51,101 bases of DNA from Burkholderiaceae bacterium (GCA_036826495.1 DAISWF010000010.1:1-51101); one strand, 5' to 3'; positions 34,135-39,951 are shown, counted from the first letter of the stretch. Translations and numbers: made by a program. The notes: generated by a model not told the origin, from the sequence alone.

Positions 34135-34908
34135 TTGAAACGATTCGACAATCAGGTGGTGATCGTCACCGGCGGCGGTGGCGGAATGGGGCTGGCGTTC
34201 TGCACGGCATTCGCTCGCGAAGGTGCGCGGGTGATCGCGGTCGACCGGCACGAGGCGGCCGTTCGCGCGACCTGCGACGCGATGGCGCGCGAGGATCTGC
34301 GCGGCGAGCCGCTGGCGCTGGACGTCGCCGACGAGCAGTCGGTCCGCCAGGCGTTCCAGGCCATCGCCGCGCGCCATGGCCGGATCGACGTGCTGGTCAA
34401 CGGCGCCGGCATCCGGCCGGTGGCCGACCTGCTCGACCAGTCGGCGGCCGAGTTCGACGCCTGCATGCGGGTCAACGGCACAGGCGTGTTCCTGTGCGCG
34501 CGCGAGGCGGCGCGCCACATGCTGCCGGCCGGGCGCGGCGCAATCGTCAACATCGCATCGGTCAACGGCATGCGCGCGGTCACCGGCATGGGCGCCTACT
34601 GCGCATCGAAGGCGGCGGTGATCTCGCTGACGCAGACGATGGCCAGCGAGTGGGGGCCGCGCGGCGTGCGCGTGAACGCGATCCTGCCGGCGCAGGTGGA
34701 GACGCCGATGATCGCCGAGCAGGTGGGTGCCGAGCGCCGGCGCCGAGAGGAGCGCATTCCGCTCGGGCGCTACGGCAAGCCGGCCGAGATCGCCGCCGGG
34801 GCGATGTTTCTCGCATCCGACGCCGCGTCGTTCATCAACGGGCATCCGCTCGCGCTGGACGGCGGCTACCTGGCGTTCGGCTTCCGCCCGCAGGTGGTGC
34901 CGCAATGA
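34135..34908 (+). CDS. Short-chain dehydrogenase/reductase (SDR)
   Basis: TTG start at 34135 follows gaaagga; the in-frame ATG at 34063 would overlap the previous gene by 50 nt. Motifs are TGGGGGMG, NGAG, catalytic YCASKAA, and the PG-like ILPAQVETPM. Confidence 0.88.
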   Translation: MKRFDNQVVIVTGGGGGMGLAFCTAFAREGARVIAVDRHEAAVRATCDAMAREDLRGEPLALDVADEQSVRQAFQAIAARHGRIDVLVNGAGIRPVADLLDQSAAEFDACMRVNGTGVFLCAREAARHMLPAGRGAIVNIASVNGMRAVTGMGAYCASKAAVISLTQTMASEWGPRGVRVNAILPAQVETPMIAEQVGAERRRREERIPLGRYGKPAEIAAGAMFLASDAASFINGHPLALDGGYLAFGFRPQVVPQ

Positions 34909-35534
34909 ACGCGCGCGACGAGAGCATCACGTTCGCGGAGGTCGAGGAGATCCTGCGCATCATCGATCAGTTCCCGGCCGCCGAGGTGACGTACCAGCGC
35001 GGTGACCTGAAGCTGCACGTCCGCCGGGCTGGGGCAGGTGTCGCGAGCCCCGCGCCGGCGGCCGGCGCCGTGATTGCCGGCGGGACGCAGGCTGCCGGCG
35101 CCGCACAGGCGGGTGCCGCGCAGGCGGGTGGCTTGCAGACAGGTGGCACGCAAACGGGAGGCATGCAGGCAGCCGGTACCGCGCAGGACGCCGGCGCCGC
35201 GCCGGCGATCGCCGCCCCGGCCGGCGCGGCCGGCATGACTGCCGCCGCCGCCGCGACGCACGGCGGCCCCGCCGATCGCGACGGCCTGGCCGCCGTCGTG
35301 TCGCCGCTGATGGGCGCCTTCTATGCGGCGCCGGCGCCGGATGCGCCGCCGTTCGTCGAGGTCGGCCGGCGCGTCGTTCCTGGCGACGACCTCTGCATCA
35401 TCGAAGTGATGAAGGTGATGAACCTGATCAAGGCCGAAGTGGCCGGAGTCGTCATAGCGGTCGAGGCGGTCAACGCGGCGATCGTCGAACGCGGCCAGCC
35501 GCTGATGTGGATCCGGCCGGAGGTGGCGCCATGA
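34905..35534 (+). CDS. Biotin carboxyl carrier protein (free-standing BCCP)
   Basis: 209 aa with an ATGA overlap. The biotinyl domain is GDDLCIIEVMKVMNLIKAEVAGVV, with the Lys in the V-M-K-V context. The N-terminal segment is ITFAEVEEILRIID. The linker is long and rich in G/A/Q. Confidence 0.85.
   Translation: MNARDESITFAEVEEILRIIDQFPAAEVTYQRGDLKLHVRRAGAGVASPAPAAGAVIAGGTQAAGAAQAGAAQAGGLQTGGTQTGGMQAAGTAQDAGAAPAIAAPAGAAGMTAAAAATHGGPADRDGLAAVVSPLMGAFYAAPAPDAPPFVEVGRRVVPGDDLCIIEVMKVMNLIKAEVAGVVIAVEAVNAAIVERGQPLMWIRPEVAP
35100..35174 (+). repeat. Five tandem 15-nt units encoding xxQxG pentapeptide repeats in the BCCP linker
   Basis: Units are gccgcacaggcgggt | gccgcgcaggcgggt | ggcttgcagacaggt | ggcacgcaaacggga | ggcatgcaggcagcc. 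They encode AAQAG AAQAG GLQTG GTQTG GMQAA. Confidence 0.8.
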
Positions 35535-38467: not shown

Positions 38468-39951
38468 CTCCCCCTTTCAGACTGATGGACATCACGGTGC
38501 GCGACGCCCAGCAGTGCCTGTGGGCGACGCGGATGACCACCGAGCAGATGCTGCCGATCGCGCGCACTATGGACGCGGCCGGCTTCGACGTCATCGACCT
38601 GACCGGCGGCGCGGCGATCGACGCGAGCGTGATGTTCCTGAACGAGAACCCGTTCGAGCGGATCCGCGAGATGGCGAAGCTGGTGCGCCGCACGCCGATG
38701 AACTTCAACACGCGCGGACAGAGCATCTTCCGCTGGATGCAGTACGCCGACGACGTGGCCGAGTTCACGCTCGATCTGCTCGCGCGCTGCGGCATCCGCT
38801 CGATCATGGTGTTCGACGCGCTCAACGACTTCCGCAACGCGCGCGCCACCGTGCGCTACGCCAAGGCGCTGGACCTGTACATCATCGGCGCGGTCACCTA
38901 TACGATCAGCCCGGTGCACACCGACGAGCACTTCGTCGGCAAGGTGCGCGACCTGGTCGCGATGGGCGTCGACGCGATCGAGCTGAAGGATCCGAGCGGG
39001 CTGCTGACGCCCGAGCGCATCCGTACGCTGGCGCCCAAGCTGCGCGCCGTCAAGGGCCGCTGCCAGTTGCAGCTCCATTCGCACTGCACCTTCGGGCACG
39101 GCGTGGACACCTACCGCGCCGCGATCGAGCTGCCGCCGGACCAGGGGTTCGACCTGTTCCATGCGGCGGCGCGGCCGCTGGCGCACGGCTATTCGCTGCC
39201 GCCGCACGAGCACGTGCTGGCCGAGGCCGACCGCGTGGGCCGCGCGGTGGCGATCGACCGCGACGCGATCCGCGAGATGGACCGCTACTTCTCCCTCATC
39301 ACCCGCCGGGCCGGGCGGGCGGAGGGCAGCCAGCCGCCGCTGCAGTCGGTCGACGTCGACCACCAGGTGCCCGGCGGCATGATGAGCAACCTCGAGCAGC
39401 AGCTCAGGGACCAGGGCCAGGCCCACCGCCTGCCCGAGGTGCTGAACGAGGTGGGCCGGGTGCGGCGCGACCTGGGCTGGCCGATCGTCGTCAGCCCGAT
39501 GGCCCAGTACCTGGGCACGCAGGCGGTGCTGAACGTGCTGACCGGCAAGCGATATCAGATCGTGCCGCAGGAGATCAAGCAGTACGTGCTGGGTTACTAC
39601 GGCGAGCTGGCGGCCCCGGTGGACGCGGAAGCCCGCGAGGCCATCGCCGGAGACGAGCCGTCGATCACCCGGCCGCCGGGGGAGCTGCTGCCGCCGATGA
39701 TGGCCGAGTACCGTCGCCAGTTCGCCGGCGCCAGAGACGACGAGGAGCTGGCGCTGCGCATCTTCTATACCCGGCGGACCGTCGACGAGCACTTCCGGCA
39801 GCGCCTGCTGGTCAAGCCCGGGGCGCTGGCCACCGATGCCGGCAGCTTCCTGGCGCGCGCGATGCTGTCCGACCCCGGCATCGAGCTGGTGGATGTGAAG
39901 CGCCGCGGCTTCCACTTCGCGATGAACCGTGCGGCGACCGCTGCCGCCTGA
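38464..39951 (+). CDS. 5S/HMGL-type carboxyltransferase (pyruvate carboxylase subunit B / oxaloacetate decarboxylase alpha-like) without a biotinyl domain
   Basis: 495 aa with an ATGA overlap. TIM-barrel start is LMDITVRDAQQCLWATRM. Has ELKDPSGLLTP and metal ligands in LHSHCTFGHG. The conserved C-terminal region is present, but there is no MKM biotinyl domain. Confidence 0.88.
   Translation: MTPPFRLMDITVRDAQQCLWATRMTTEQMLPIARTMDAAGFDVIDLTGGAAIDASVMFLNENPFERIREMAKLVRRTPMNFNTRGQSIFRWMQYADDVAEFTLDLLARCGIRSIMVFDALNDFRNARATVRYAKALDLYIIGAVTYTISPVHTDEHFVGKVRDLVAMGVDAIELKDPSGLLTPERIRTLAPKLRAVKGRCQLQLHSHCTFGHGVDTYRAAIELPPDQGFDLFHAAARPLAHGYSLPPHEHVLAEADRVGRAVAIDRDAIREMDRYFSLITRRAGRAEGSQPPLQSVDVDHQVPGGMMSNLEQQLRDQGQAHRLPEVLNEVGRVRRDLGWPIVVSPMAQYLGTQAVLNVLTGKRYQIVPQEIKQYVLGYYGELAAPVDAEAREAIAGDEPSITRPPGELLPPMMAEYRRQFAGARDDEELALRIFYTRRTVDEHFRQRLLVKPGALATDAGSFLARAMLSDPGIELVDVKRRGFHFAMNRAATAAA

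Follow-up and report, generated by a model that had tools for sequence, protein, structure and literature searches.

A probable dedicated biotin-dependent carboxylase with a distinct 5S-type carboxyltransferase in a conserved uptake-and-breakdown operon of a Burkholderiaceae bacterium

Within a 51,101-nucleotide stretch of DNA from a Burkholderiaceae bacterium (GCA_036826495.1 DAISWF010000010.1:1-51101; hereafter the window), we examined a plus-strand operon that encodes a three-part biotin enzyme. An AccB-type biotin carboxyl carrier protein (BCCP, 34905-35534), an ATP-grasp biotin carboxylase (BC, 37097-38467) and a 5S/PycB-fold carboxyltransferase (CT, 38464-39951, 495 amino acids) are separate genes, split by an SCP-x-type thiolase-fold protein (35531-36685) and its DUF35 partner (36682-37092). 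The five genes in 34905-39951 translate cleanly at these coordinates, and the translations together with Pfam and NCBIfam matches bear out this arrangement, which an earlier note on the same DNA had described. ATGA overlaps join the BC and CT genes, as well as the BCCP gene and the preceding gene for a classical short-chain dehydrogenase/reductase (SDR, 34135-34908). The plus-strand operon as a whole spans 31979 to 45583, with a regulator and a second binding protein upstream and divergent. The BC is intact, with Biotin_carb_N, CPSase_L_D2 and Biotin_carb_C domains and a score of 616.6 bits against PRK08591 (cut-off 597). A Carboxyl_trans scan of the window's contig returned no crotonase-fold CT, in line with the earlier note, which had seen none nearby; 13 matches lie elsewhere in the genome.

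The CT consists of an HMGL-like domain (residues 6-221) and a PYC_OADA domain (299-437), and the same Pfam scan gave no Biotin_lipoyl match in its 495 residues; the protein stops at residue 495 without a biotinyl domain, as had been claimed, and the two motifs that had been singled out, MDITVRDAQQ and HSHCTFGHG, are both found in the translation. Its closest solved relatives by sequence are 5KS8 (PycB, E = 1.6e-80), 2NX9 (the OadA CT domain) and 1RQB (5S), and AlphaFold2, given a 37-row alignment as input, returns a model (predicted local distance difference test, pLDDT, 91; predicted template-modelling score, pTM, 0.89) that superposes on 5KS8, 1RQB and 2NX9 with template-modelling (TM) scores of 0.82-0.85. 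The Pfam domains and these superpositions confirm the proposed 5S/HMGL type at the level of the superfamily.

In its active-site motifs the CT departs from the canonical enzymes. It carries RDAQQC, NTRGQSIFRWMQY, KDPSG and HSHCTFGH; the canonical RDxHQS, LLRGQNLLGYRH and KDMAG, the second with the general form LLRGQNxxGY(R/K)H, read RDAQQC, NTRGQSIFRWMQ and KDPSG here, and these changes are kept across the operon clade. When 18 operon-clade sequences were set against six canonical ones, 27 positions proved to be fixed differently, several of them in active-site loops, including C18, the post-R84 loop set F81, N82, S87, R90, W91 and Q93, and P177 beside K175. Canonical and non-canonical members of the 37-row alignment all share R13, D14, Q17, R84, H207, P303-G305 and N309, and almost all of them K175 and H205. 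From general knowledge of pyruvate carboxylase and 5S structures, we take these conserved residues to be the metal ligands (the Asp of RD, the Lys of KD and HxH), the carbamylated Lys, and the Arg/Gln/Arg set that holds a 2-oxoacid. The CT has an intact catalytic core and a changed pocket.

A search of 1.84 billion representative sequences yielded 150 relatives of the CT. We placed it in a FastTree phylogeny of 138 rows (50%-identity representatives of 440 to 900 residues plus the operon-clade members; midpoint root, FastTree local support only, no CfiB or 5S reference sequence included), which splits in two at a local support of 100. The KDMAG/LLRGQN sequences, many of which carry a biotinyl domain at the C-terminus, fall on one side (67 rows). 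This side is anchored as the canonical clade by NCBIfam scores, cluster look-ups having given automatic names only: ten of its representatives reach 600-1060 bits on PycB/OadA models, and four of these exceed the oadA equivalog cut-off. The other side (71/138 rows) consists almost entirely of sequences of 450-500 residues without a biotinyl domain and with varied active-site loop motifs, and it is here that the CT lies, nested with its operon orthologues at 97-100, with Arthrobacter-type and then Desulfofundulus-type and Rokubacteria-type sequences as neighbours. No characterised member was found on the 71-row side, where the ten entries looked up carry automatic names (PycB/OadA) or none. The tree shows that, on its sequence, the CT belongs to a distinct sister branch of the pyruvate-carboxylase/OadA/5S family, and the names in this biotinyl-less branch point to wide mis-annotation. 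Tight clustering with two-subunit pyruvate carboxylase, the finding that the earlier note held would speak against it, is not seen in the 138-row tree.

The genome's housekeeping pyruvate carboxylase is a separate single-chain enzyme on another contig, C277, where a fragment scores 675 bits against PRK12999 over model positions 633-1145, the C-terminal half. Because this single-chain enzyme is encoded elsewhere and the CT lies across the fully supported split, the CT is not the cell's pyruvate carboxylase. It could instead be part of an operon-dedicated split pyruvate carboxylase, supplying oxaloacetate during growth on a substrate whose breakdown yields acetyl-CoA (coenzyme A) and pyruvate, for example through aldol cleavage of a citramalyl-CoA-like ester. 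The PycB domain model is indeed the top NCBIfam match of the CT (411.5 bits, cut-off 402), 5KS8 is its best solved relative with all known pyruvate-holding residues kept, and PGAP and JGI call its relatives PycB or OadA. However, no NCBIfam equivalog cut-off is reached (oadA 370 against 756.5, PRK14041 353 against 734, 5S PRK12330 283 against 827), and the genome's own single-chain enzyme, the deep split from canonical PycB/OadA and the 27 differently fixed positions all speak against it, as do the separate AccB-type BCCP with its own conserved VMK site and the interleaving of the carboxylase genes with the aldolase pair in every cluster. We consider a split pyruvate carboxylase unlikely.

The BCCP scores 117.6 bits against TIGR00531 (cut-off 115.2) and has a Biotin_lipoyl domain at residues 131-203; its N-terminal BC-docking region is kept in orthologues. 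The predicted biotinyl Lys stands in the context IIEVMKVMN, so the atypical V-M-K-V site is present as described earlier. Of nine biotinyl sites detected genome-wide, it alone departs from (A/S)-M-K-(M/L), the other eight being canonical. Partner BCCPs from Variovorax, Paucibacter, Ramlibacter, Desulfofundulus, a Burkholderiales metagenome-assembled genome (MAG) and a metagenome contig read C-I-(I/V)-E-V-M-K-(V/L/I)-M-N, and that of Arthrobacter reads A-I-V-E-V-M-K-L-M-N. Since VMK is conserved in every partner BCCP read, E-V-M-K-V is, as far as these sequences tell, no accident and a signature of the BCCPs that serve this CT family. The linker is a different matter. Tandem Repeats Finder confirms its Q/G/A repeat, with a period of 15 nt over 35100-35170, and the five tandem units that had been noted at 35100-35174 encode, in frame, AAQAG AAQAG GLQTG GTQTG GMQAA. 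Because seven orthologous BCCPs have ordinary Ala/Pro-rich linkers and none with such a repeat, we read it as a probable local product of low-complexity slippage, without conserved meaning.

For the protein between BCCP and BC, we compared alignments to PDB entries 4U4E, 9MYR, 6OK1 and 7YVY and to its orthologues. The closest solved relative is 4U4E, a structure without assigned function (E = 2.6e-104), with Ltp2 at E = 1.6e-49. The position of the nucleophilic Cys in the archaeal thiolase 7YVY is Met/Gly here and varies among orthologues, the His of the thiolase HDxF motif is replaced by Tyr291 (YDAF), and Tyr339 aligns with Tyr344 of TcLtp2 (6OK1). In the Ltp2 retro-aldolase, Tyr294 acts as base and Tyr344 as acid (Rolfe et al., PMC12329534), and in Sal of Comamonas the catalytic residues are Tyr302 and Cys304 (PMC12329534). 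With the nucleophilic Cys gone, the Ltp2 Tyr pair present (Y291 and Y339) and a DUF35 partner (zf-ChsH2 and OB_ChsH2_C, that is, Zn-ribbon and OB domains) encoded next to it, the protein is probably a non-steroid Ltp2-like retro-aldolase rather than the thiolase it was earlier called. It resembles the Ltp2-ChsH2(DUF35) pair of Thermomonospora curvata (6OK1) in its Cys-less thiolase fold, the Tyr of YDxF, the second Tyr and the DUF35 partner; in contrast to ChsH2, the DUF35 protein here is free-standing and not fused to a MaoC hydratase. We found no steroid genes or MaoC hydratase among the window open reading frames (ORFs) scanned or in the orthologous clusters.

Upstream of the SDR gene lie the two subunits of a 3-oxoacid CoA-transferase, A (32800-33465; TIGR02429, 293.5 bits, cut-off 128.5), whose GTG start overlaps the stop of the permease gene before it, and B (33462-34112; TIGR02428, 296.6 bits, cut-off 243.55). 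The SDR itself (adh_short/adh_short_C2) resembles FabG as well as butanediol and hydroxybutyrate dehydrogenases, and has no specific assignment. The gene order from permease through CoA-transferase A and B, SDR, BCCP, thiolase-like protein, DUF35, BC and CT to a small EthD-family protein is kept in Paucibacter, Roseateles, Rubrivivax, Ramlibacter and Variovorax, with 55-84% identity for most proteins of the Burkholderiales orthologues and 40-49% for BCCP. Arthrobacter sp. 35W and Aquisalimonas lutea hold the same parts in another order, with an ADP-forming acyl-CoA synthetase in place of the CoA-transferase and the aconitase-X genes (AcnX) divergent next door. All orthologous clusters seen include a BC gene within the operon. 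A sample of 300 genomes from the same order yielded no CT orthologue (E <= 1e-120); the distribution of the cluster is patchy, and it may have been acquired horizontally.

Taken together, these data show that a conserved, regulated uptake-and-breakdown operon encodes all three parts (BC, BCCP and CT) of a biotin enzyme from a distinct clade. We think it likely that this enzyme is dedicated to carboxylating a free substrate, and that the substrate is not anaplerotic pyruvate. BC would carboxylate biotin on BCCP in an ATP- and bicarbonate-dependent reaction, and the CT would move the carboxyl group to the metal-bound enolate of a free carbonyl compound rather than a CoA ester, because the site is of the 5S-type metal-enolate kind and a crotonase-fold CT is missing. 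The compound would most likely be a 2-oxoacid or an anionic methyl ketone, imported by a TauABC-like system, and the product would be a beta-keto acid. With such a product and a CoA-transferase of the 3-oxoacid type, activation by the ScoAB/PcaIJ-type transferase (or, in Arthrobacter and Aquisalimonas, the ADP-forming synthetase) would be the natural next step. The SDR would then reduce the 3-oxoacyl-CoA, and the Ltp2-like aldolase with its DUF35 partner would split the product into acetyl-CoA and an aldehyde, so that in the operon clade SDR and aldolase may have taken over from a thiolase. This full order of carboxylation, CoA activation, reduction and aldol cleavage is a tentative proposal, to which we give somewhat less than an even chance; substrate class, step order and direction of the pathway are what we infer. 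The abundance of CoA enzymes in the operon, which the earlier note had set against a 2-oxoacid-type CT, is no contradiction, as a 3-oxoacid CoA-transferase fits the handing over of a free beta-keto acid to CoA. The free 2-oxoacid-like substrate proposed there is upheld in part: the residues that hold a 2-oxoacid are kept and the CT has its own BC and BCCP, but nothing singles out a 2-oxoacid over other carbonyl compounds. Of the suggested 2-oxoglutarate-carboxylase logic within a catabolic operon, the breakdown context stands, and nothing in the data shows that logic.

Several points weigh against our proposal. All pyruvate-holding residues are kept in the CT, which is compatible with plain pyruvate. 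Reduction of a 3-oxoacyl-CoA followed by aldol cleavage is a detour compared with thiolysis, and the Arthrobacter orthologue of the presumed aldolase has Phe instead of the second Tyr. The scheme assigns no role to AcnX or EthD, although both are conserved in the cluster, and the 3-oxoacid specificity of the activating enzyme is not a conserved trait, since other lineages use the ADP-forming synthetase. The ABC (ATP-binding cassette) importer could in principle carry bicarbonate instead of an organic substrate; two CmpCD-like ATPases occur in some distant clusters.

The EthD-family protein (39929-40282; Pfam EthD; TIGR02118, 54.4 against a cut-off of 30.5) is encoded next to the CT in most orthologous clusters. 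It is followed by the AcnX large subunit (40295-41551; Pfam AcnX, E = 2e-115) and the small swivel subunit (41548-42009), and in five Burkholderiales genera the two AcnX genes stand directly after EthD or divergently upstream. The closest solved structure to the large subunit is 7CNR (TkAcnX, E = 8.6e-61), the mevalonate-5-phosphate dehydratase of Thermococcus, from which residue roles were taken (PMC8184944). The substrate triad E129-S130-S131 reads D-T-G here, and the KGSTV motif around Ser62 of the TkAcnX small subunit, whose Ser is catalytic in that enzyme (PMC8184944), aligns to KGGIA, the change from Ser to Gly being kept in five orthologues (loci L002, L010, L011, L012 and L014). The reaction of this AcnX branch is probably neither of the two known dehydrations; no third AcnX function appeared in the papers covered by a full-text search. 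AcnX and EthD probably prepare or process the carbonyl compound.

The loss of the catalytic Ser weakens schemes that need an aconitase-like isomerase, among them a reverse 2-oxoacid chain elongation in the manner of the reductive citric acid cycle. There, CO2 would be added at C3 of R-CH2-CO-COOH as by 2-oxoglutarate carboxylase, the SDR would reduce the 2-oxo group, AcnX would shift the hydroxyl and turn a 3-substituted into a 2-substituted malate, the CoA-transferase or synthetase would activate the product, and cleavage by the aldolase/DUF35 pair would give acetyl-CoA and R-CO-COOH, a shorter 2-oxoacid. Such a route would place five conserved activities (carboxylase, SDR, AcnX, CoA activation and aldolase) in one line and account for the conserved 2-oxoacid-holding residues of the CT. 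It would also suit both the cleavage of tertiary beta-hydroxyacyl-CoA esters by Ltp2-type aldolases (PMC12329534) and the membership of the Arthrobacter-type ADP-forming synthetase in the succinyl-/citryl-CoA synthetase superfamily. However, an AcnX with a changed triad and without the Ser by which AcnX and aconitase abstract the alpha proton makes a two-step isomerisation doubtful, rehydration of the product is not known for any characterised AcnX, the CoA-transferase is of the 3-oxoacid and neither the citramalate nor the citrate type, and there is no evident reason why the cell should not simply decarboxylate the 2-oxoacid oxidatively. We regard chain elongation as quite improbable.

More distant members of the CT family adjoin true thiolases and CoA-activating enzymes; NMT1-type ABC systems and a class III CoA-transferase are also among their neighbours, and in a Bacillota MAG an SAF and GD_AH pair resembling the sulfolactate sulfo-lyase SuyAB lies beside the CT. 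In some of these relatives (among loci L007, L008/L009, L018 and L019) BCCP and CT occur with no BC nearby, and two distant loci carry a second, transcarboxylase-like CT gene. The thiolases and CoA-activating enzymes in these neighbourhoods suggest a shared theme of beta-keto acid, CoA ester and C-C cleavage. Some distant members thus have a BCCP with one or two CTs and no BC close by, and the nearest structural relatives, OadA and 5S, work in reverse or as transcarboxylases, so the CT could likewise decarboxylate a beta-keto acid onto biotin and pull an unfavourable step, the carboxyl group then being released or passed on. Yet every orthologous cluster seen has an intact BC, which would be left without a role, and neither membrane pump subunits nor a second CT were matched among the operon ORFs scanned. 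We hold this mode of action to be very improbable, and return to forward carboxylation of a free substrate as the preferred reading.

The transport genes give some hint of what that substrate may be. The operon begins with a TauC/SsuC-like ABC permease (31979-32803; BPD_transp_1), whose top NCBIfam match is TauC at 176.7 bits, under that model's cut-off, and it encodes downstream of AcnX an NMT1-type substrate-binding protein, SBP2 (42040-43086), distantly like SsuA and TauA, and an ABC ATPase (43083-43901; ABC_tran). The closest solved structures to SBP2 are 3E4R/3KSX, TauA 6SSY and SsuA 2X26, which bind alkanesulfonates or taurine. In Paucibacter-type relatives a choline-sulfatase-like gene lies inside the operon, followed by an ABC ATPase, a binding protein, an aldehyde dehydrogenase and a Rieske oxygenase (L010 14799-21234; L011 13785-20317), and distant family members have TauE, SulP and SuyAB-like genes in their vicinity. 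This circumstantial evidence would fit a small anionic, perhaps sulfur-bearing compound, a sulfonate or a sulfate ester. We did not adopt any of five more specific proposals, each of which fits some genes and lacks supporting evidence: acetone from 3-hydroxy-3-methylbutyryl-CoA; levulinate converted to 3-oxoadipate; a 3-methylglutaconate/HMG (3-hydroxy-3-methylglutaryl) route with free acids; sulfoacetone or 2-oxo-4-sulfobutanoate; and trimethylaminoacetone or dehydrocarnitine.

Against known systems, the CT is most like PycB of Methylobacillus flagellatus (5KS8; TM 0.83), with which it shares the HMGL-like TIM barrel and PYC_OADA cap, the metal ligands, the Lys and the Arg/Gln/Arg set, as well as reliance on a separate BC subunit; PycB, however, has its own C-terminal biotinyl domain, whereas here BCCP is a separate AccB-type gene. 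The 5S subunit of Propionibacterium (1RQB) and OadA of Vibrio cholerae (2NX9) have the same fold (TM 0.82-0.83, root-mean-square deviation 2.7-3.7 Å), and 5S likewise lacks a biotinyl domain, but the canonical motifs of both are not kept in this CT. Neither works with a BC: 5S needs the crotonase-fold 12S partner and OadA needs membrane subunits, whereas this operon has a BC, no 12S-like partner and no membrane subunits matched. CfiAB of Hydrogenobacter thermophilus consists of a BC subunit and a PycB-like CT that carries a biotinyl domain and carboxylates C3 of 2-oxoglutarate, in the service of autotrophic CO2 fixation; compared by description only, it differs from the present set, whose BCCP is separate and whose genes sit in a regulated operon for uptake and breakdown. 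Biotin plays no part in acetone and acetophenone carboxylases, which are members of the hydantoinase/oxoprolinase family. They are alike in outline, proceeding from ATP-dependent carboxylation of a free ketone through a beta-keto acid and a CoA ester to acetyl-CoA; here a biotin enzyme with a 5S-type CT would do the chemistry. To our knowledge, the only known substrates of 5S-type CTs are pyruvate/oxaloacetate and 2-oxoglutarate.

Within the literature covered by a full-text search, no paper or pathway matches this combination of genes. It is conceivable, and we offer it as a speculative possibility, that the CT is the first member to be recognised of a class of biotin-dependent 'keto-compound carboxylases', a large sister radiation that opens an undescribed aerobic pathway, with a serine-less AcnX catalysing a third reaction in the route. 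In such a pathway, the starting compound, a small anionic ketone or a 2-oxoacid that might come from a sulfonate or sulfate ester, would be carboxylated in free form, converted to a CoA ester and cleaved by a thiolase-derived aldolase. About half of the sequence diversity around this CT falls in the biotinyl-less branch that databases name 'pyruvate carboxylase subunit B' or 'oxaloacetate decarboxylase alpha', and the compact, strongly conserved operon occurs in the cultured strains Variovorax sp. SRS16, Arthrobacter sp. 35W and Aquisalimonas lutea. Once solved, the substrate would correct a widespread mis-annotation and add a new biotin-dependent carboxylation, and would probably also bring functions for the serine-less AcnX, the EthD protein and the non-steroid Ltp2-like aldolase.

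The remaining genes flank this core. Divergent from the operon on the minus strand are a HutC-type GntR/UTRA regulator (31067-31852; Pfam GntR and UTRA), which adjoins the operon in seven orthologous loci (L001, L003, L010, L011, L013, L015 and L016), and a further NMT1-type substrate-binding protein, SBP1 (29949-31010; Pfam NMT1/NMT1_2), whose start we set at the ATG at 31010, 3' of GAGGAG. The last plus-strand gene encodes a choline-dehydrogenase-like GMC oxidoreductase (43913-45583), which scores 607.9 against PRK02106 (cut-off 605) and stays under the betA cut-off; it is an accessory gene, missing from the orthologous clusters L001 and L003. Elsewhere in the window (7397-19201, minus strand) lies a module similar to the one that follows the sulfatase gene in Paucibacter-type relatives, with no sulfatase identified in it. 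It combines an ABC ATPase and an NMT1 binding protein with a GntR regulator, a true thiolase and several oxidoreductases: an aldehyde dehydrogenase like succinate-semialdehyde dehydrogenase (SSADH), a Rieske oxygenase plus its reductase, and a GMC oxidoreductase resembling choline dehydrogenase. Through this module, a sulfate ester or an alcohol may be channelled into the operon's pathway.

Biotin enzymes are unusually numerous in the draft genome (74.7% complete), which gives 13 Carboxyl_trans and 10 biotin-carboxylase matches. In Variovorax sp. SRS16 (L001 11975-17606), bioA-, bioF-, bioD- and bioB-type genes and a P450 gene lie beside the cluster, and a metagenome contig has a bioB-like gene upstream of it and a biotin-protein-ligase gene after the AcnX genes on the same strand. 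Biotin genes in this position suggest a high demand for biotin when the operon is on.

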